Assembly (NCBI RefSeq): GCF_004010195.1
Contig: NC_057759.1
Location: 7,554,211-7,590,222 of the forward strand
Direction of reading: 5' to 3'
DNA length: 36,012 nt
Source: Chiloscyllium plagiosum
Lineage: Eukaryota
Position numbers and translations under genes: made by a program. Numbering within the stretch: position 1 is the stretch's first letter; each line of letters opens with the position of its first letter. Below are positions 4,862 to 30,700 of the stretch, one piece after another. Below the pieces are notes generated by a model. The model saw nothing but the letters and a program-made list of their open reading frames with translations. It had not been told where the DNA came from and did no database searches.

Positions 4862-5474
4862 GGCCTACTTTCGTTTGTTGACTATATAATCATCCAATCT
4901 CAAGCAAAAACATTTAAGTAACTTAACTCTTACAGATAGCATATTGGGGCATCACATATAATGATATTAAGAAAACATAATCACACTATGTCTAAATGGA
5001 ATATCAAAATTCAAACTTAATAGCGAATCAAACAAGCATGCTAGATGAAAAATAAATAAGGCGTTGGAGAAGAGAAAAAGAAGGACCGAAAAATCAAACA
5101 AACGTTATAAAAACGAAGCATTCAGTGATCAAGGGTTATTGTGTACCCATGGTCTAATAATCCGGACAGAATTTTATGCAAACAATAGGATGAACGATTA
5201 TTTATTAGGCTAAACAAATACTTAATATGTCCATACAGCTTTTAATAAGCTTGTAGAGACCGTGAGTTTTCTGAAACTATGTACAGTCTCTGAGATTTTT
5301 ACCTTCTTCACGTGGAAAATTTTACCTTGAGGATGTTGAGGAGTACCAGCGTAACCACGATTAACAACACAGACAGATGTGACACACAAGTCGGAACTAG
5401 GTATTGATTTGTATTTTGGAGGACCAATCCATCATTGACCTGCTTTACTACCTTCTACGGGCTGTGACCAATGG

Positions 5475-5805: not shown

Positions 5806-6019
5806 CAAAGTTAAAAATCACACAACACCAGGTTATAGTCCAACAGGTTGAATTGGAAGCACTAGCTGTCGGAGCGCCGCTCCTTCATCAGGTGGTTGTC
5901 AGGTGAAGGAGCAGCACTCCAAAAGCTAGTGCTTCCAATTCAACCTGTTGGACTATAACCTGGTGTTGTGTGATTTTTAACTTTGTACACACTAGTCCAA
6001 CACTGGCATCCCCAAATCA
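5806..6019. mobile_element. Palindromic Penelope-derived non-autonomous element
   Basis: Inverted arms of about 85 bp (caaagttaaaaatcacacaacaccagg... / ...cctggtgttgtgtgatttttaactttg, 5806-5985) with degenerate hammerhead cores. Confidence 0.8.
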
Positions 6020-6289
6020 AGAATTTTGTCTGTTATCTCAGGTGGTACTCTGATAATTTGGCGTGTTTCTTTCCGATAAATAAATGCTCCATATGTTCGT
6101 TGCTGATTCAGGATGGAAACAGTCTCTACCTAATCTGATCTAGATTTTCTCTCCACTGTTCTATCACGCATTGTTCATACATACTGCACTGGATCTGTTG
6201 CCCGCTGCCATCTTCCAATTCTCCTTTTATTACCTGGTTTACTGTTTAGGCAAGTTTTTCTCTCATGGGTACGCTAATCCCAAATAGCT

Positions 6290-8882
6290 TGAGAACAAGA
6301 ACAAAGGAGAAAGAAAATTCCAGAAGAGGAACAGGCCCTTCAGCCCTCCAAGACTGTCCACCAAGCCACAACCTGATTTCTAAACCTGTCGCTTATTTTC
6401 TAAAGGTCTGTATCCCTTTCCTCCCTACCCATTCATGTATCTGTTTAGATATATCTTAAATGATGCTGTCGTGTCTGCCTCTCCCACCTCCGCTGGCAAT
6501 GCATTCCAGGTATCCACGACACGCTGCGTAAAGAAAATTCCATGCATATCTACCCTGAACGTTGCCTCCTTCACTTTGAACTCATTACTCTTCGTCATTG
6601 AGTCTTCAGCTCTAGGAATAAGCTTCTTGCGACTCACTCTCTCTATACGTCTCCACTAGGTCCCGACTCAACCTTAGTATTTCTAATGAATATAATCCTA
6701 ATCTGCTCAACCTCTCTTCATAGCTAGCGCCCTCCGTACCTGGCAACATCCTAGTGAACAGCCTCTTCACACTCCCCAAACCGTCCCCACCTTCAGGGTA
6801 CAATGGACCTGAAAGCACAGATCTCTCTATTCATCAACTTTACCAAAGGATCTTCCGTTTACAGTACAGTTCTCTCTAGAATTAGACTTCCCAAAATGCA
6901 TCACTGCAAACTTGCCTGGATTGAACTCCACCTGTCATTTTTCTGCTCATCGCTCCAGTCTATCTATATCCTCCAGTATGCTTTGACAGTCTCCCATGCT
7001 TTTTGCTACTCCACCAATTTTCGTGTCATCTGCAAACTTACTGATCAGACCAACAATACCCTCTTACAGATCATTTATGTATAATACAAACAACAGCGAT
7101 CCCAGCACTGATTCCTGTGGAACACCACTAGTCACCTTTCTCCATTTCGAGAAACTCTCTTCAACTAATAATTTCTGTCTCCTGTTGCTCAACCAATTCT
7201 TTATCCCCCTTGTTAGAACACACTGCACACCAAGTGACTTCACTTTCTCTATTAGTTTACCATGGGAAACCTTATCAAACGCCTTAGTAAAGCCCTTGTG
7301 GATGACATCCATAGCGCTTCCTTCATCTATCAACTTCGTCACTTCCTCAATGAACTCTATTAAGTTGGTAAGGCACGATCTACCCTGCATAATAAAAAAA
7401 ATTGCATATCACTGATAAGACCATTCTTTTCCAGATAATAGTAGATTTTATCCCTCGTACCTTCTCCAGCAACATGATTACCACTGACGTCAGGCTCACT
7501 GGTTTGTAGTTAACTGGAATATCCCAACAGCCTTTCTTGTACAGGGGTACAACATGAGCAACCGTCCAGTCCTCCACCACCTCACCTGTGTTTAAGGATG
7601 CTGCAAAGACATCTGTCAGAGCCCTGACTATTTCCCCTCTCGCCTCCGTCAGCAACCTGGGATATATTCCATCCAGTCCAGGGCGTTTGTCCACCGTAAT
7701 ATCCTTTAGTCTACCCAACACTTCTTCCCTCCTTATGTCAATGTGATCCAGTGTAAAGAAAATTCTGCTTCTAATATCGACATTCATCATGTCCCTCTCC
7801 TGTGAACACTGATGCAAAGTAATCATTAAGAATCTCAGCAGTTTTCTCACGTTCGACACATAACCTTCATTCCTTATCCTTTAGTGGACCACACTTTCTC
7901 AGGTTATCCTTTTGCTTCTCATACATGAATAAAAGGCCTTGGGGTTCTTTTTAATTCTGCTCGCTAACATTATTTCTTGACCCCTTGTAACCCATTTGAT
8001 TCCTCACTTAAGGTTGGTCCTTCTCTCCTTATATTCCTCTAAGGCCCGTTCTGTTATTAGCTGCCTGGATATTATGTACGCTTCCCTTTGCCTGTTGTCT
8101 AGTCATACGATTTCTCTGGTCTTCTACAGTTCACGAATCATGCCATTCCAATCTCTTGTTTTCAAAGGGATATGAGAGCTGATCCAGTACCATCTTCAAC
8201 ATATCTTTGAAAGCCTCCAACATGTCAAATGTGGACTTGCTTTAAAATTGCTGCTCCCAACTCACATTTCCCAGCTCCTGCCTAATTCTGATATAATTGG
8301 CCTTGGCCCAGTTTAGTACTCTTCCCTTAATACCACTTCATCTTTGCCTACGAATATTCTACAACTTACAGAATTGTGGTCAGTATTCCCAAAGAAGTCC
8401 CCCATAGCAACGTCACGCTCATTCCCCAACACCAGGCCCAATATAGCCCCTTTTCTGTTCGGACTATAGACATCCTGCTCTAGCGAACTTTCCTGGACTC
8501 TCCTTACAAATTTTGCCACATCCAGACCTCTGAAACCTCATGTTTCCCAGGCAATGTTGGAAAAATGAATATCTCCCATCACCACCACCCTGTCCAGTCT
8601 ACATTTTTCCATAATCTGTGTAACTCTTTTCTCTTTACCTCACGCTCACTGTTGGAAGACATACAAAACAGCCCCACCAATGCAACTGCACCCTTCTTCT
8701 TTCTCAGTTCTACCCATAACGCCTCATTGCTCAAGCCCTCCAGAGTGTCATCCTTTTTCACAGCCGTGATATCATCCCTAACTAGCAATGCAACTCCTCC
8801 CCCCTTTTACTTCCCTCCTTATCCTGTCTGAAGCATTTATATCCTGGAACATTTACTTGCCAATCATGTCCTTCCTTCAACT
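6290..8882 (-). mobile_element. CR1/HER1-type LINE, 5'-truncated ORF2 (endonuclease plus RT), degraded
   Basis: GRSCLTNL, KAFDKVSH, SGVPQESVLGSLLFVLYINDL, ALWVELR, ILGLVLGN/TDHN; 3' tail near 6290; internal deletion near 6800. Confidence 0.92.
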
Positions 8883-8884
8883 TT

Positions 8885-9830
8885 TTTTATGGATCAGCTC
8901 ATAGTCATCAGCCACTTCAGCTGCTAACCTTGCTGTTTCAACTCTCTGCACTTCCACATGAGTTCGTCCTGCATCTGGCAGTGAATTCCTCCAAAATAAT
9001 CACCTCCTTTCGCGTATCATATGTTTGCTCGATTTTTAAAACTTTTATCCATCTATGGAAATTATTCTGTTTGTTTCTGTCAAACTCAATATAGGTTTGA
9101 CAAGCGATCTTCCATAGACTCAAGCTCATCTGCACTTAAAATGGCTTTTTCCAATTCCTCGTACTCCCCAGATACCTCCTTTGATAGGATGCCAATACCT
9201 CACTCGCTCTGCGTCGAAGTTTCGTTTGGATCAATGAAACACTCATTGCCACTGGCGACTGCATTTTTTTCACCACTTTTTTCAAATTAAATGAAAAATT
9301 CTTCCACATCGTTTTCTTCAAATTAGCCAATGCTTGAACTTACTTAAACAGTTTATCACGACGCTTCTGACTAACAGGGATTTACTCATCATCACTCTCT
9401 TCCTCATAAGCCTACACTGAAATTTCAACTCCAGTCTTTTAAGCTGAGTTTTCCTTTTAAGTGTCACTGTTTAAAGTATAAAACACTGTATTTTTCTTCT
9501 TCTGCTCTTTCTTTTCCCCTCTCTTCTGCTTCTATTCATAACTCAAACTGTTCCATTTCTGCTGCCCTTTCCTTATCTCTTCCCTCCAACTCAAATTGCT
9601 TCATTTGCAGTTGAATTTTTTTTTTGCCATCTCTATAGATTATGATGGTTTCGCCAGCAAGTTTAAATGCTGAGCTACTGCTGTAATGATCTCTCCTTTC
9701 CTCACAGACACTGGCAATTCCACTGTCAACTTCTATGCAAATTCTTGCAATTTAGTCTTTTTCACTTTTTGCAAAGCATCAAAAGTCACCGTACCCATGT
9801 CCAGAAAACGTTTGGCGACTGGAAGAGCCA
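8885..9830 (-). mobile_element. Gypsy (Gmr1-like) gag relic with SCAN-like domain
   Basis: Starts MALPVAKRFL. Fragments LIQTKL..RASEV and QTYIEFDRNKQNNFHRWIKVLKIEQTYDTRKEVIILEEF; interrupted at 8885 by the CR1. Confidence 0.78.
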
Positions 9831-10710: not shown

Positions 10711-11868
10711 TGTCCTTTGCGGGGCCGGAGCTGCTATGAAGACAGAGTTGGTGTAACTATAGAATTGAGGGAGCCTGTTGCATTGGGCAAAAATGGAACA
10801 GACATATGAGCAACTGTGTATCACGGAGGGAGGCTTCACATTTGAAGGAGAGGATGATGGTCGACTTTGTTCCAGGAGTAGGTGGCGGTTTTGTGTTCAG
10901 GAACATACACAGTGGTGAAAAACTATTTTTTGACAATTCTTCTTCACAATAAGCAAAAGAAGATTTAAATCAGCTCGAAAGTTAAGAAATTTACAATTGC
11001 TGATAATTTCAGTACTGAAAGGGATTTCTCAACGGAAATGATTTCAACCTAACAAAACGTTGAGAATGACCTGAAGGCTTTGGGTGATGATTCAACTATG
11101 TACAGTCTCTGAGATTTTTACCTTCTTCACGTGGAAAATTTTACCTTGAGGATGTTGAGGAGTACCAGCGTAACCACGATTAACAACACAGACAGATGTG
11201 ACACACAAGTCGGAACTAGGTATTGATTTGTATTTTGGAGGACCAATCCATCATTGACCTGCTTTACTACCTTCTACGGGCTGTGACCAATGGCGTTCGA
11301 ATTTGTTGTAAGTCCTCCGCCAAGAGTTTGTGAGCAGGAGTTCATCATTTGTGTTAAATTACACCTTTCCCCTTTTCTCTATTATTTTTCATATGCATTA
11401 GGCCTACTCTGGTCGGTATATGTGACCTAATGAAAAAGGTACTGTTGGTGGCATTACATTGTTCCATCCCAAGCTGATAAGTGCGCAGTGAGGTTGTGAG
11501 GCAATATTCGCCTCTTCCTTGTAGACTACCTGGGTGATGTTATTGTCCATGTTGCAAGCCTTAATGTGACAATTCAGACCGTGTTTGGTTTGAAGCCACA
11601 CCATGCATGTTCATTTCAATAAATTGAGTATGAGAATGTTATTACTGTGCTAATTTTGACATTCGTCCAGACTAATGCCTGTGATGTTTCCTTCCTTCTC
11701 CTCTACGCATGGTAAGGTGCTGTTACGTCCTAACCATAGATACTCTTGATTTCTACTTGAAGCACACTGTGTCCAAATCGGTCGTCCATGATTAATGGAA
11801 GTTGTAATAAAATACCGAATTCTTCCCCAGAAGTTCCCTTCTAAATTCTTGCGAACAAGAATTTTGTC

Positions 11869-12080
11869 CAAAGTTAAAAATCACACAACACCAGGTTATA
11901 GTCCAACAGGTTGAATTGGAAGCACTAGCTGTCGGAGCGCCGCTCCTTCATCAGGTGGTTGTCAGGTGAAGGAGCGGCACTCCAAAAGCCAGTGCTTCCA
12001 ATTCAACCTGTTGGACTATAACCTGGTGTTGTGTGATTTTTAACTTTGTACACACTAATCCAACACTGGCATCCCCAAAT
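11869..12080. mobile_element. Palindromic Penelope-derived element (duplicate copy) with target-site duplication
   Basis: Same hairpin, flanked by the direct repeat caagaattttgtc (11856-11868 and 12081-12093). Confidence 0.82.
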
Positions 12081-12352
12081 CAAGAATTTTGTCTGTTATC
12101 TCAGGTGGTACTCTGATAATTTGGCGTGTTTCTTTCCGATAAATAAATGCTCCATATGTTCGTTGCTGATTCAGGATGGAAACAGTCTCTACCTAATCTG
12201 ATCGAGATTTTCTCTCCACTGTTCTATCACGCATTGTTCATACATACTGCACTGGATCTGTTGCCTGCTGCCATCTTCCAATTCTCCTTTTATTACCTGG
12301 TTTACTGTTTAGGCAAGTTTTTCTCTCATGGCTACGCTAATCCCAAATAGCT

Positions 12353-14987
12353 TGAGAACAAGAACAAAGGAGAAAGAAAATTCCAGAAGAGGAACAGGCC
12401 CTTCAGCCCTCCAAGACTGTCCACCAAGCCACAACCTGATTTCTAAACCTGTCGCTTATTTTCTAAAGGTCTGTATCCCTTTCCTCCCTACCCATTCATG
12501 TATCTGTTTAGATATATCTTAAATGATGCTGTCGTGTCTGCCTCTCCCACCTCCGCTGGCAACGCATTCCAGGTATCCACGACACGCTGCGCAAAGATAA
12601 TTCCATGCATATCGATCCTGAACGTTGCCTCCTTCACTTTGAACTCATTACTCTTCGTCATTGAGTCTTCAGCTCTAGGAATAAGCTTCTTGCGACTCGC
12701 TCTCTCTATACTTCTCTACCAGGTCCCGCCTCAACCTTAGTATTTCTAATGAATATAATCCTAATCTGCTCAGCCTCTCTTCATAGATAGCGCCCTCCAT
12801 ACCAGACAACATCCTAGTGAACAGCCTCTTCACACTCCCCAAACCGTCCCCAACTTCAGGGTACAATGGACCTGAAAGCACAGATCTCTCTATTCATCAA
12901 CTTTACCAAAGGCTCTTCCGTTTACAGTACAGTTCGCTCTAGAATTAGACTTCCCAAAATGCATCACCGCACATTTGCCTGGATTGAACTCCATCTGTCA
13001 TTTTTCTGCCCATCGCTCCAGTCTATCTATATCCTCCATGATGCTTTGACAGTCTCCCATGCTTTCTGCTATTCCACCAATTTTCGTATCATCTGCAAAC
13101 TTACTGATCAGACCAACAATGCCCTCTTACAGATCATTTATGTATAATGCAAACAACAGTGGTCCCAGCACTGATTCCTGTGGAACACCACTGATCACCT
13201 TTCTCCATTTCGAGAAACTCTCTTCAACTAATAATTTCTGTCTCCTGTTGCTCAACCAGTTCTTTATCCCCCTTGTTAGAACACACTGCACACAAAGTGA
13301 CTTCACTTTCTCTATTAGTTTACCATGGGAAATCTTCTCAAACGCCTTAGCAAAGCCCTTGTGGATGACATCCATAGCGTTTCCTTTATCTATCAACTTC
13401 GTCACTTCCTCAATGAACACTATTAAGTTGGTAAGGCACGATCTACCCGGCATAAAAAAAATTGCCTATCACTGATAAGCCCATTCTTTTCCAGATAAAA
13501 GTAGATCTTATCCCTCGTACCTTCTCCAGCAACATTCTTATCACTGACGTCAGGATCACTGGTTTGTAGTTAACTACAATATCCCAACTGCCTTTCTTGT
13601 TCAGGGGTACAACATGAGCAACCGTCCAGTCCTCCAGCACCTCACCTGTGTTTAAGGATGCTGCAAAGACATCTGTCAGAGCTCTGACCATTTCCCCTCT
13701 AGCCTCCGTCAGCAACCTGGGATATATTCCATCCAGTCCATGGCATTTGTCCACCGTAATATCCTTTAGCCTACCCAACACTTCTTCCCTTCTTATGTCA
13801 ATGTGATCTAGAGTAAATAAAATTCTGTTTCTAATCTCGACATTCATCATGTCCCTCTCCTGAATGAACAGGATGCAAAGTAATCATTAAGAATCTCAGC
13901 AATTTTCTCAGGTTCGACACATAACCTTCCTTCCTTATCCTTTAGTGGACCAACACTTTCTCAGGTTATCCTCTTGCTTCTCATAGATGAATAAAAGGCC
14001 TTGGGGTTCTCTTTAATTCTGCTCGCTGATGTTATTTCTTGACCCCTTGTAACCTGTTTGATTCCTCGCTTAAGTTTGGTCCTTCTCTCCTTATATTCCT
14101 CCAAGGCCCGTTCTGTTATTAGCTGCCTGGATATTATGTACGCTTCCCTTTGCTTGTTGTCTAGTCATACGATTTCTCCAGTCATCCACAGTTCACGAAT
14201 CATGCCATTCCTGTCTCTTGTTTTCAAAGGGATATGCTTATCCAGTACCATCTTCAACATATCTTTGAAAGCCTCCAACATATCAAATGTGGACTTCCCT
14301 TCAAATTGCTGCATCCAATCCACATTCCCAGATCCTGCCTAATTTTCATAAAATTGGCCTTGGGCCAGTTTAGCACTCTTCCCTTTGTACCACTTCATCT
14401 TTGCCTACGAATATTCTAAAACTTACAGAATTGTGGTCAGTATTCCCAAAGAAGTCCCCCACAGCAACGTCACGCTCATTCCCCAACACCAGGCCCAATA
14501 TAGCCCCTTTTCTGTTCGGACTATAGACATACTGCTCTAGCTAACTTTCCTGGACTCTCCTTACAAATTTTGCCACATCCAGACCTCTGAAACCTCATGT
14601 TTCCCAGGCAATGTTGGAAAAATGAATATCTCCCATCACCACCACCCTGTCCAGTCTACATTTTTCCATAATCTGTGTAACTCTTTTTTCTTTACCTCAC
14701 GCTCACTGTTGGAAGACATACAAAACAACTCTTTTTTCTTTACCTCACGCTCACTGTTGGAAGACATACAAAACAACCCCACCAATGCAACTGCACCCTT
14801 CTTCTTTCTCAGTTCTACCCATAACGCCTCATTGCTCAAGCCCTCCAGAGTGTTGTCCTTTGTCACAACCGTGATATTATCCCTAACTAGCAATGCAACT
14901 CCTCCCCCCTTTTACTTCCCTCCTTATCCTGTCTGAAGCATTTGTATCCTGGAACATTTACTTGCCAATCATGTCCTTCCTTCAACT
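12353..14987 (-). mobile_element. CR1-type LINE ORF2 relic (duplicate of 6290-8882)
   Basis: GRSCLTNL...[21 protein letters not shown]; same internal deletion as copy 1. Confidence 0.92.
14679..14774. repeat. 48-bp tandem duplication unique to copy 2
   Basis: aactcttttttctttacctcacgctcactgttggaagacatacaaaac occurs twice here but once in copy 1 (about 8621-8668). Confidence 0.9.
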
Positions 14988-14989
14988 TT

Positions 14990-15689
14990 TTTTATGGATC
15001 AGCTCATAGTCATCAGCCACTTCAGCTGCTAACCTTTCTGTTTCAACTCTCTGCACTTCCACATGAGTTCGTACTGCATCTGGCAGTGAATTCCTCCAAA
15101 ATAATCACCTCCTTAAGCGTATCATATGTTTGCTCGATTTTTAAAACTTTTATCCATCTATGGAAATTATTCTGTTTGTTTCTGTCAAACTCAATATAGG
15201 TTTGACAAGCGATCTTCCATAGGTTCAAGCTCATCTGCACATAAAATGGCTTTTTCCAACTCCTCATACTCCCCAGATACCTCCTTTGATAGGATTCCAA
15301 TTCCTCACTCGCTCTGCATAGAAGTTTCGTTTGGATCAATGAAACACTCATTGCCACTGGCGACTGCATTTTTTTCACCACTTTTTCAAATTAAATGAAA
15401 AAGGCTTCCACATCGTTTTCTTCAAATTAGCCAATGCTTGAAATTACTTAAACAGTTTATCACGACGCTTCTGACTAACAGGGATTAACTCATCATCACG
15501 CTCTTCCTCATAAGCCTACACTGAAATTTCAACTCCAGCCTTTTAAGCTGAGTTTTCCTTTTAAGTGTCACTGTTTAAAGTACAAACACTGTATTTTTCT
15601 TCTTCTGCTCTTTCTTTTCCCCTCTCTTCTGCTTCTATTCATAACTCAAACTGTTTCATTTCTGCTGCCCTTTCCTTATCTCTCCCCTC
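14990..15689 (-). mobile_element. Gypsy gag relic (duplicate)
   Basis: ORF 15043-15381 matches 8938-9330. Confidence 0.78.
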
Positions 15690-27090: not shown

Positions 27091-28387
27091 AACCTGTGAA
27101 GGCTATAATAAAGGATTGGAAGACATCTGGGACATAGGAGTGTGTCACCCACAATCTTTTCTTATGGAGAAGACTTTCAGGACCAGTGAAACATTGACAT
27201 CTGTAATGGATTGCATATGTGCTTTCATTATCTTAATTAACTGATACACAATATATGCACTTAGTCTTTTCAGTAACCTTCCAGAAAATTGATTCTCATT
27301 GTCCATTGTATATATGAGGTGACTATAATTAGGAATCCGCTAACATTAACTTCGGGTTAGCACTTATTCAAGCCTGAAATATTTTGTTTAAAAGGGAGCA
27401 GCAAATATGTTTCTGTTTTCCCATGGAATATCAAAAGAAAATTCATAAAGTGTGAACACACAGGTTAAGAAATTTGTTAAGATTTCTTTCAACTTACCGC
27501 ACTCCCTGCCTCGCCGTCGCCCCATATCCCAGACCAAAATGGTTCCGAGAGCATGAAACTTATCAGCCATCATTTGCTGTCATTTTGGCTCCGAATTCAA
27601 TGTAGTCGCAACAGTCTGCTAATGCACTTGGAATCAGCACAAGGCGCTAAGACATGCAAAGGGCATTGGCCAACTCCATTTCGTCAGCTCTGAGATCCTC
27701 TGAAGGGTTACAAGCAAAGGTCCTCTCTGTTCATATGGATTTTTAAAATTATTATTTCTGAGTTGCAATTGTTGGCTCTAATGGAAACGTGATGAGTGAA
27801 AATGGTGGCATCATTTCAATTTATTTCTCGCTATGTCTTAAAAGCACAACTTCGAAATAGTTTAGCAATTCGGTAACCAAAACTTTTTTCTGGAATTTAG
27901 CGAAAATCACATGCCATCTTGCATCTTTTTATGCAATCATGAAAGAAATTATGATAGAATGACCATTAAAAGAATTTCACGAAATTCAAACAACCCTATT
28001 TGTCTCTAATTAATTGGCCAAAATAATAATTTATGTTAAATCTTCACATGCCATACATGGAGGAATGGCAAACCTCTCGAGAATGAAGGAGGAAGTAAGA
28101 TATTGTGGAAACTTAATGGAAAACGTTGCTTTTCTGAAATCTATGCCTGTTGACAACTCATTTGTCCATTTTAATTCCCGCAGTCCTTTGTTACGTGTTA
28201 GTACAACAGATAAAAATTGATATTAGGGTTTTAGTTCATGCATTAAACTTTCTGATTTTTGTGGGATTTCTGTAAAATATACAACTTACAATCTTCTGTT
28301 GTAAACTGAGGCCCAGAAAACATCATGCACTCAGATTGCACAGATTTCGAATTATCAAGTCATTCAAACTGCCAGTATACGTCATAA

Positions 28388-28483
28388 GGGAGAGAGAGAG
28401 ACAGACAGACAGAAAGGAAGTAGTGGAGGAGAAGAAGGAAGAGAAAAACAGAGAGACAGAGAAAGAGAGAGCAAGAGACAGAC
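28388..28483. repeat. GA/GACA-rich polypurine low-complexity tract
   Basis: gagagagagacagacagacagaaaggaag...gagagagcaagagacagac. Confidence 0.8.
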
Positions 28484-28555
28484 AATTCCTTCACAACTCT
28501 TTTCTGAAACCTTCTGGGACAGTTAATTGGACTGGGATTTATTCATCATTGGAGG

Positions 28556-28640
28556 ATGGAGAAACAATTGCTCTTGATTTTTGTTGCATTGATGCTGGCA
28601 CAGCCTGTCACTACAAAGACCTGGGTCGGTGGAGTTTTCG
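28556..28640 (+). CDS. defb: Beta-defensin-like gene, coding exon 1 (signal peptide plus short N-terminal extension)
   Basis: ATG in strong Kozak context (AGGATGG: A at -3, G at +4). Reads MEKQLLLIFVALMLAQPVTTKTWVGGVF+G: charged N-terminus, hydrophobic core LLLIFVALMLA, plausible cleavage near VTT|K. Ends at phase-1 donor TCG|gtagag, matching exon 2; a weaker phase-1 alternative lies at 28628|gtggag. Symbol is family-level only. Confidence 0.75.
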
Positions 28641-28859
28641 GTAGAGTATTTTTATGAAATATTACCATGTCGCTGAAAAATATGATTTAAAACTGAACTT
28701 CCCTGTTTATCAATCACCACTTGAGTGTTCAGCTATTATGGATGCAATCAGATTTATGTTTTATTATTTTATGGGACGTTGGCTTGATTGGCTGCCTGTA
28801 TATACCCTTGAATTGAAAGGGTAGTTGGCACATTGCAGATTGCATTTAAGACGTATCCA

Positions 28860-28962
28860 TATCCGGGCTTCACTTGGAGGTCGCCACTGATGATGTTACC
28901 TAGCCAGGTAATGAAACGTCAGGATATCAAACCTACAGCTCAGCGAGCAAAGCTACACCCTA
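28860..28962 (+). mobile_element. Penelope-like element terminal-repeat fragment with minimal hammerhead ribozyme motif (28884-28923), inside the defensin intron
   Basis: CTGATGA (28887-28893), T, stem GTTACCT/AGGTAAT, GAAA (28913-28916), CGTC; downstream agctcagcgagc. Same motif as the 3' end of the GIY-YIG Penelope relic at 24835-25300. Confidence 0.7.
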
Positions 28963-29905
28963 AACGTGTCCATGTTTCTGTTCGTCTTAAATAACAACTG
29001 AGTGATAATACCGCGCATGAAGTGGACTTCTTACAGTAGGATATCAGACAGGGTTCATCTTTCCATTCACTTGGCAACCTTCTTAATGATGATCGGTTGG
29101 GTTCAATGTGTTAGGTTTCTGTGAACAGGAAGAGGCTTGAATACTCAAATGGAAAGCTGATGAATTCTCGGTATTTGAGTAACTATTATTTAGGATTTGA
29201 GGGAACAATCCTTTATTTGATGCCGAATATCAGGATATAACTGACTCTAAGAAATGCATTCCTTCTTCACAGAGCAGAGCATGTCCGTTGGCATTATTTG
29301 AGGAGGTGGGTGCAATTCGACTCCCTTCGGCTAAAAACATTCTTTCAAGCGTTGTCATAAGAACATTTGTATTCTGTTAATTCGAATATGCTTCCTGGAT
29401 CTTTCTTTGATCATTGTGTTCATTCGGTTACCTATAAAGCAGCGCCAGTACCTCCAAACGACATTTAAAATAAAGAAGTATGTACAAACATAAACAAACA
29501 AACAAAAAAAAACCAACAAACTGATACATAAGTAAGTAGTATCTGGTATTCTCCTTTTACGGAAGCAACATTTCTCTTTCATTTGCCTCTGAACTCAGAT
29601 GTAAGAGGAAAATGTTGTCTCGCCGTCAGGACAAAGACCGTTTTATCACTTACGCTAAGGGAAGACACTTGAGTTGACATTAAGAAAATGCAACAATCGC
29701 AACGTGCTGTTTGGGGTCAGTTTGAGCGACGTGGCGAAATCACCTTGCTGGTTTGTAACTTGCTCTCTTTCTCTCTTTCTCCAGAACTAGGTTTCAGAAT
29801 TGAAAATATGCGAGCCACTATGAGTGCAGCACCTCCTCTCTGAAAGAAATAGTTCTGTACTGACAATCTAAGATGAATGAACAGTAAAATTATTCTCCTT
29901 TCCAG

Positions 29906-30042
29906 GATACGTTGCCTGGTGCAGCTGGAGCACAACAAAGTGTCGTCGGAATGCTTGTGAGAAAGATGAGTCGCATTTTGCTCAACGCTGTCCATATGGA
30001 ATGATCTGCTGCAGGAAGATAGAGGAAAAGGTTCTCCGTTGA
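29906..30042 (+). CDS. defb: Beta-defensin-like gene, coding exon 2 (six-cysteine mature domain)
   Basis: Strong acceptor (attattctcctttccag|GA). Phase-1 reading (G)YVAWCSWSTTKCRRNACEKDESHFAQRCPYGMICCRKIEEKVLR* gives C-x6-C-x4-C-x10-C-x5-CC, the conserved C3-xxx-E, and basic residues after CC. TGA at 30040-30042. Symbol is family-level only. Confidence 0.88.
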
Positions 30043-30289
30043 CTCCGATGATAGAAGTCAGCATGGCGTAGCTCCAAGTTGCTTCTGGAATGCAGGATTC
30101 CCTTGACTGAAAACGTGACATAAAACCTGGCTATGTATTCTTCTTATTTGACATTGATCTGCACTTACATATAAAATTGAATGATTAATATAATTATCGT
30201 GTTTTCTTTATGATGCTAATGTTCATGCTTGAAACCAAAATGAGTCCAACAAAAAAGGGGAGGCGATTTGTATGAAATGGAATAGCAAA

Positions 30290-30295
30290 AATAAA
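30290..30295 (+). promoter_or_regulatory. Candidate polyadenylation signal of the defensin-like gene
   Basis: AATAAA about 250 bp after the stop codon; the context is AT-rich, so it is not diagnostic. Confidence 0.35.
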
Positions 30296-30464
30296 GAATA
30301 ATCTAATCCAAATGCACTCGGAGGCATTTACATTTCTAACGCAATTGGCACTGATTGCCGTTCAGACTGGTAATTCTGTGTTGCAATGTAATTCTGGGAA
30401 TCGCAATGTTTGGAAAGTTGGAAAAATGAATGATATACTTTTCATCAGACAAGTTAGATTCTGA

Positions 30465-30700
30465 AAGAAAGGAAAACGAAATTGCTGGTGAGCAACTTCT
30501 GGCAAGTCTGGCAGCATCTGTGAAGAGAAAACGGCGTTAATGTATCTAATACAATTAACTTTCTTCAGAACACGTCTTCTCAAAAAAAGATCACCAGTTT
30601 CGAAATGGTTTCTCGAAATTGTCTCAACTGATGTTATCAGCCCATCAGATTTGTTTTCTATCTACTACAGCCTTTTTGGATCAGATTTCGAAAGTCGACC
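30465..30700. mobile_element. Degenerate palindromic Penelope-derived element
   Basis: gaaattgctgg...ctggcagcatctgtgaagag with a decayed inverted partner. Confidence 0.5.

Follow-up and report, generated by a model that had tools for sequence, protein, structure and literature searches.

A real-looking, divergent beta-defensin gene from an expanded and apparently unreported family in a cartilaginous fish genome

Beta-defensins are described as ranging "from teleosts to mammals" in part of PMC7203481, where a phase-1 intron ahead of the Cys module is given as common to beta- and big defensins. The original prediction for the locus described here took a signal-peptide exon, a phase-1 intron and one six-Cys exon to be the usual tetrapod layout. 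This holds for mammals, which have two exons, but not for birds and reptiles, which have three according to the relevant part of PMC8231796. Its statement that teleost beta-defensins usually have three exons agrees with the gene structures outlined in PMC11541337. Human beta-defensins are impaired by salt, as summarized in PMC6805989. Section 14 of PMC6795676 includes no defensin among the shark antimicrobial peptides it gives. No report of a cartilaginous fish defensin was found in the open-access literature among the matches listed, judged by titles and the starts of abstracts, with subscription journals outside this scope.

The window, the whole stretch of DNA that was analysed, is 36,012 nt long (C50:7554211-7590222), and paralog searches covered its 3.56-Gb assembly. 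A two-exon gene is located on the plus strand. Coding exon 1 (28556..28640, 85 nt) begins at ATG 28556, whose start context has A at -3 and G at +4, encodes a signal peptide of residues 1-20 (28556-28615, with a putative cleavage site at its end) followed by 8 codons, and ends in phase 1. The predicted phase-1 intron (28641..29905, 1,265 nt) has GT at 28641 and AG at 29904-29905, as read from the genomic sequence. Coding exon 2 (29906..30042, 137 nt) encodes the six-Cys beta-defensin module, with a Cys core at 29920-30012 and a C-terminal basic tail of 9 residues, and closes with TGA at 30040-30042. The first canonical polyadenylation hexamer 3' of the stop is at 30290..30295 on the same strand, giving a putative 3' UTR of approximately 250 nt. 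The spliced ORF is 222 nt (73 aa) with no internal stop. The start codon, signal-peptide exon and 1,265-nt GT-AG intron agree exactly with those originally predicted, and the undisrupted 222-nt frame was re-derived.

The Cys residues are at positions 34, 41, 46, 57, 63 and 64, a spacing of 6-4-10-5-0 with a closing CC, which reproduces the predicted C-x6-C-x4-C-x10-C-x5-CC. Glu is present four residues beyond Cys3. The predicted peptide from residue 21 contains 10 K/R, 5 D/E, 1 H and 3 W with a net charge of +5, and recalculation returned the same K/R, D/E and charge values as had been claimed. The predicted mature peptide of 53 residues has a mass of 6.2 kDa and a pI of 9.1. The hydrophobic core of the signal peptide (residues 5-15) has a mean Kyte-Doolittle value of 3.27. 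Thirteen residues with a mean hydropathy of 0.64 separate the putative cleavage site from Cys1, and the peptide has an aromatic N-terminal segment. As a chance control, 300 codon-block shuffles were searched: none contained the exact Cys spacing, which the real window holds once, and 4 contained a loose form of it. No second family exon was found elsewhere in the 36,012-nt window.

Searches with this gene alone returned little. Exon 2 matched no Pfam family at E<=10 and the same was true of its five closest paralogs. Exon 2 alone matched beta-defensin 104 only at E 0.94. No homologue of exon 2 of similar or greater length was found among 5.8 billion proteins using a word-index search, which is weak for a divergent 44-aa peptide. 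The sole match among 1.84 billion representatives was an unrelated repetitive precursor of 266 aa, with 22 residues aligned. The three matches shown by the ESM Atlas were beta-defensin clusters (0.78-0.79), which serve as a lead only. Exon 1 recovered only itself in the genome as a DNA and as a protein query.

The genome search with exon 2 gave 51 matches. Among these were L002 at C50:7604143, 20 kb downstream (57% identity, E 3.6e-9), and L003 on C47 (52%, E 3.1e-6). Fifty-three places were read, comprising 48 of the 51 exon-2 matches and five from a PF00711 search, with the window gene included. The identical 31-codon Cys frame was present without indels in 46 of the 53. The gene is thus a member of a large family and not an isolated oddity. 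The seven places lacking the Cys frame (L016, L018, L033, L036, L039, L044 and L049) were regarded as chance matches and left out of the 46. All six Cys are kept in 39 of the 46 copies, and 33 also lack a stop in the core. Thirteen are visibly broken by loss of a Cys or by a stop. A pyrimidine-rich phase-1 AG lies exactly four codons before Cys1 in 39 of the 46. Approximately seven subfamilies were distinguished by eye, with 24 to 55% identity to the window gene. When 11 representatives were aligned the only invariant residues were the six Cys and the Glu after Cys3, in line with the conservation of C3-xxx-E expected from the original prediction.

Further searches added 18 places at E<=0.007 (22 matches, 4 of them among the places already read) and 23 more at 91-97% DNA identity (40 matches, 17 already read; 40 of 108 candidates were scored). 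The total of approximately 87 places is a lower bound for the assembly, yet is inflated by haplotype duplicates on unplaced contigs. Searching with exon 1 of L019 returned 51 matches, 26 of them at E<=0.001, and 16 of the 51 were on C49 between 1.4 and 8.1 Mb. On this 10-Mb chromosome family exons 1 and 2 are scattered over approximately 1.4-8.1 Mb, some of them paired at 1.4-2.3 kb. Each of L019, L040 and L048 is preceded, 732-1,330 nt upstream, by a signal-peptide exon of its own; these exons span 30-31 codons and stop in phase 1, and L019 has a donor similar to that of the window gene at the matching place. A Pro at the fourth position ahead of the probable cleavage site is common to the window gene and two of these three, which supports both the exon 1 call and cleavage after residue 20. 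Exon 1 was not found in the flanks examined for L002, L003, subfamily B, subfamily C, L038 and L017, several of which contain N gaps. L002 (C50:7604137-7604268) has no recognisable exon 1 within the 19.9 kb from the window gene, a distance that includes a 1.7-kb N gap. Alternative splicing could supply it with the exon 1 of the window gene; otherwise the gap could hold an exon 1 belonging to L002.

A tree of 11 exon-2 peptides without an outgroup had long end branches, with two of eight inner branches starred; in it the window gene fell into a loose group (95/88) together with L002, L003, L004 and subfamily C. As there was no outgroup, no claim on origin was drawn from it. Subfamily C (L021-L032, L034, L043, L050-L060 and L008) consists of at least 40 near-identical exon-2 copies (91-97%) scattered over C7, C8, C11, C23, C32, C38, C39, C48 and unplaced contigs. 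The copies share at least 2.5 kb of common flank with LINE and satellite pieces. Exon identity is 95% compared to 91-95% for the flanks, and pN/pS is 0.65 with neutrality not rejected (p 0.17). Exon 1 was not found within 7.5 kb upstream in the three copies checked, two of which have N gaps. Subfamily C may be the passenger of a spreading segmental duplication or may represent misplaced pieces of one array. Carriage by a transposon is an idea suggested by the common flank, whose ends lie beyond the 2.5 kb.

The assignment to the beta-defensins came largely from relatives of the gene. L019, L020 and L017 scored 24.3, 24.3 and 24.1 bits against PF00711, above the cut-off of 21 bits, and four of the 11 representatives matched PF00711 at E<=1. 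The Pfam check proposed for the window gene gave no match with exon 2 itself; matches above the cut-off came from these relatives. The genome search with PF13841 gave no matches. None of five matches to PF14862 was above its cut-off in the genome, and exon 2 had no PF14862 match. Alignment of the window subfamily profile to the profile holding L019, L020 and L017 using hhalign covered 38 columns with a probability of 96.9 and an E-value of 1.8e-10, a result in which the shared Cys weigh heavily. In a first profile search of solved structures both matches were beta-defensins (106 and 104) with the Cys in register. With a second profile all five were beta-defensins, the best being beta-defensin 106 at E 0.00067. 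The solved beta-defensins returned included 106/hBD-6 (2lwl), 104/hBD-4 (5ki9), hBD-3 (1kj6) and avian spheniscin-2 (1ut3).

AlphaFold2 with a 6-row alignment predicted three strands (pLDDT 73, pTM 0.45), with two of five models above pLDDT 70. Using this alignment-based model, 42 of 47 Foldseek matches were defensins or defensin-like by title, with alpha-defensins on top and none at E<=0.001. Of 31 VIA matches 23 were defensins or defensin-like by title, none at Z>=5, and the top one was human beta-defensin 6 (Z 4.0, rmsd 2.4, 40 aligned). Every score in the fold lists was weak and alpha- and beta-defensins were not separated. No defensin was among the fold matches of a single-sequence model. 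Based on the paralog family, the relatives over the Pfam cut-off, profile matches to beta-defensins only and the phase-1 intron before the Cys module, the window gene almost certainly belongs to the beta-defensin family, and the predicted beta-defensin-like identity is supported. It is a real-looking, divergent beta-defensin gene, and the expanded family itself is apparently unreported.

The explanation we favour, with moderate confidence, is an intact beta-defensin gene within a strongly expanded, lineage-specific family of cartilaginous fish, acting as a secreted host-defence peptide. The exon layout, the open frame, family membership and constraint on the Cys frame are the part of this explanation read from the DNA. 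The dN/dS (Nei-Gojobori, 43 codons) was 0.38 against L002 and 0.51 against L003 at a dS of about 1, rough values from few codons. These values indicate past constraint, as expected for a real gene. Outside shared repeats the flanks of the window gene and its nearest paralogs no longer align. The pairs L004/L041, L038/L048 and L027/L031 gave dN/dS of 1.1-2.0, which fits either positive selection or decay. Judged on its sequence, the window copy is probably expressed and functional. The transcript would be spliced at 28640^29906 or at 28628^29906 and the precursor would enter the secretory pathway, with signal peptidase presumably cutting after residue 20. The 53-residue cationic peptide would fold into a three-stranded sheet with putative disulfides 1-5, 2-4 and 3-6, a pairing taken from the alignment. 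It would act at an epithelial surface or after release from granulocytes, where its basic residues and aromatic N-terminal segment may bind anionic microbial envelopes. It might also attract leukocytes, as other beta-defensins do. The antimicrobial role of the gene is putative, and host defence is on balance the likelier main role.

The gene may instead be a functional beta-defensin that serves mainly as a reproductive-tract peptide, in sperm coating, maturation or storage or in egg-case protection, rather than as a barrier antimicrobial. We consider this unlikely. Sharks have internal fertilisation and an epididymis, and a large, charge-diverse family would parallel the mammalian epididymal beta-defensins. 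The net charge of the exon-2 peptide ranged from -2 to +4 within the family and many members were neutral or acidic, so not every member resembles a cationic microbicide. The best sequence matches were to beta-defensins 106 and 104, which we take to be expressed in the epididymis, but the identity of a best match at such E-values says little on function. The family size is mammal-like, unlike the two genes of sea bass or up to seven of salmonids given in the portion of PMC8231796 on teleosts. The window copy itself, however, is cationic and its N-terminal segment is aromatic, features that a membrane-active peptide should show.

Slightly less probable still, and likewise unlikely, is the reading that the window copy belongs to a birth-and-death family but was silenced recently or is poorly spliced, so that it yields no useful peptide today and its intact frame is a relic of past selection. 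With 13 of 46 family copies broken, a recently silenced copy would look no different. A weak donor and a competing acceptor also speak for this reading. The donor at 28640|28641 has a low score of 1.9 bits against a consensus matrix and ranks 18th among 74 GT sites in 28560-29900. An alternative in-frame phase-1 donor at 28629..28634 on the plus strand, cutting at 28628|28629 and 12 nt upstream, scores 1.0 bit compared to 1.9, and its use would yield a product four residues shorter with the Cys module unchanged. A tandem pair of similar 12-nt units, with one phase-1 GT each, occupies 28626-28649, and a small duplication may have moved the exon 1 boundary. The acceptor at 29905|29906 is good, with 12 of 14 pyrimidines and rank 2 of 70 AG sites. 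It is outranked by a pyrimidine-rich competing acceptor (29765..29784, plus strand, 14 of 14 pyrimidines, rank 1 of 70) that cuts at 29784|29785, 121 nt upstream, from which a phase-1 reading reaches a stop ahead of the Cys exon. The splice signals are weaker than the original prediction had stated. Against silencing, the copy lacks none of the expected elements: it has a start context, a signal peptide, a donor and an acceptor, the six Cys, a stop codon and a polyadenylation hexamer, and the weak donor has its counterpart in L019.

Variation was read from two DNA runs, X1 and X2, of organism A from one study. Exon 1 showed two differences in X1 and X2, and both alter a residue (L5F and V18I), as silencing might allow; both changes are conservative, however, and the coding part of exon 2 had zero differences in either run. 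Over 27200-30700 both runs differ from the window at several fixed positions that they have in common, which suggests that organism A is another population or a close relative of the assembled animal. An inversion allele parting the exons, possibly present in X2, would also fit silencing. In one X2 contig, 29763 on the minus strand is connected to 28485 on the plus strand; these points coincide with the arms of a 31-nt GA/TC inverted repeat (81%; 28453-28483 upstream and 29751-29781 in the intron), and the contig also has two intron differences absent from X1. X1 is continuous through 29763, and the X2 joint was filtered out as probably false. The joint may stem from an assembly artefact, or it may mark one boundary of an inverted 28485-29762 segment in which exon 1 is reversed. 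The upstream arm of the repeat is part of a GA-rich tract 5' of exon 1 (28383..28484). Segments at 28263-28272, 28378-28385 and 28413-28424 resemble NF-kB, CRE and ETS/PU.1 sites, likenesses that may be due to chance. The intron also holds a fragment of a very high-copy repeat (28867..28965), where the summed depth exceeds 500,000 in X1 and X2 compared to 10-30 in unique parts. Two raw single-cell runs from one sample, of which approximately 2% and 6% were sampled, gave 65 and 0 reads, all from repeats, and this sampling does not amount to an expression test.

That there is no defensin gene here, and that exon 2 is a Cys-rich frame arisen by chance, belongs to some unrelated protein or comes from a repeat, is very improbable and largely refuted: the missing Pfam match and homologue, the sole match to an unrelated repetitive precursor and the travelling of one subfamily with satellite and LINE pieces would suit it, but the motif did not arise in any of the shuffles, its spacing, acceptor and stop positions are conserved across paralogs with diverged flanks, and there are paralogs above the PF00711 cut-off and paired signal exons.

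Outside the gene the window is made up of repeats, among them LINE fragments, and of a 3.8-kb duplication that surrounds two N gaps. This direct duplication (5806-9586 and 11869-15689, 94.5% identity) contains LINE pieces and has an N gap beside each copy. An exact 200-nt repeat is found at 5275-5474 and 11094-11293. Both are possibly assembly artefacts. Immune-receptor loci elsewhere in the assembly bear on the host. L079 (C11:91600937-91601260) has V and J in one frame in genomic DNA and was confirmed as a light-chain V-J by solved-structure matches. In L078 (C9:2022462-2022785), too, an immune-receptor V is joined in frame to a J in the genomic sequence. On C8, heavy-chain V genes occupy four sites 14-42 Mb apart, and L071 was identified as an antibody heavy V region by solved-structure matches. 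None of 20 V-set pieces looked like a new-antigen-receptor V domain. The named matches to a LINE protein were birds at approximately 55% only and thus uninformative about the host. The germline-joined light-chain V-J of L079 and the scattered heavy-chain V genes support the predicted cartilaginous fish host. The corresponding part of PMC6795676 restricts germline-joined VJ to the cartilaginous fish and gives multiple mini-clusters as the arrangement found in them. The repeats and V sequences suggest a shark rather than a ray.

The window gene by itself is an ordinary member of its family; the interest rests on a large family in a key vertebrate lineage, with roughly 90 copies compared to two to seven in the teleosts covered by PMC8231796. 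The broader reading, which we put forward tentatively as being rather less than an even chance, is that cartilaginous fishes hold an unreported, mammal-sized beta-defensin repertoire of approximately 100 copies in at least seven subfamilies, with the ancestral two-coding-exon layout and perhaps largely strung along small chromosomes such as C49. If true, vertebrate beta-defensins would date to the jawed-vertebrate ancestor, the three-exon gene and small repertoire of teleosts would be derived, and an expansion would have occurred independently in an internally fertilising lineage. In its boldest form this reading takes the long exon 1 and the aromatic N-terminal segment as the remnant of a shortened big-defensin N-terminal domain, which might aid function in salt- and urea-rich fluids. 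A two-exon phase-1 family in cartilaginous fish bridges the big defensins of amphioxus and the beta-defensins of bony vertebrates and makes the direction of exon-layout change testable. Whether barrier defence or internal fertilisation drives defensin expansion can be tested independently through the size of the family, and the family is a natural set of peptides that must function in high salt and urea.

Among known systems, the beta-defensin-fold peptides of venoms (platypus DLP and crotamine) and of anemones were low in the fold list (Z 2.1-3.9) and had no sequence-profile match, and they give no pointer to a venom role for the window gene. Teleost beta-defensins (types 1-5) are likewise secreted six-Cys peptides of similar size, as set out in part of PMC8231796. 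In those species the gene comprises three exons and its Cys are divided 4+2, according to the section of PMC11541337 on gene structure, whereas the window gene has all six Cys and the stop in one exon. Teleost copy number is two to seven per species in the account of PMC8231796, compared to dozens in the window family. Invertebrate big defensins (PF14862) share the phase-1 intron before the Cys module, as described in the same part of PMC7203481, and a short, partly hydrophobic segment ahead of Cys1. Their N-terminal domain is approximately 40 residues while the window gene has 13 residues only. The oyster BigDef1 C-domain (6qbk) aligned to the predicted model with a Z of 3.0 and an rmsd of 3.8 over 35 residues. 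Mammalian beta-defensins (PF00711 and PF13841) differ in several respects. The fixed 6-4-10-5-0 spacing of the window family is one or two residues longer than in hBD-6 and hBD-4, family exon 1 is 85-94 nt with 8-11 residues beyond the signal peptide, and the window subfamily scores below all Pfam beta-defensin models. The mammalian genes share with the window gene the signal exon, the phase-1 intron and six Cys in one exon, as far as described in PMC11541337 and PMC7203481. The Cys register and the Glu after Cys3 are also shared, and a three-stranded sheet is tentatively predicted for the window gene. Both sets of genes form multigene families in which some copies are broken and others arose by recent duplication.
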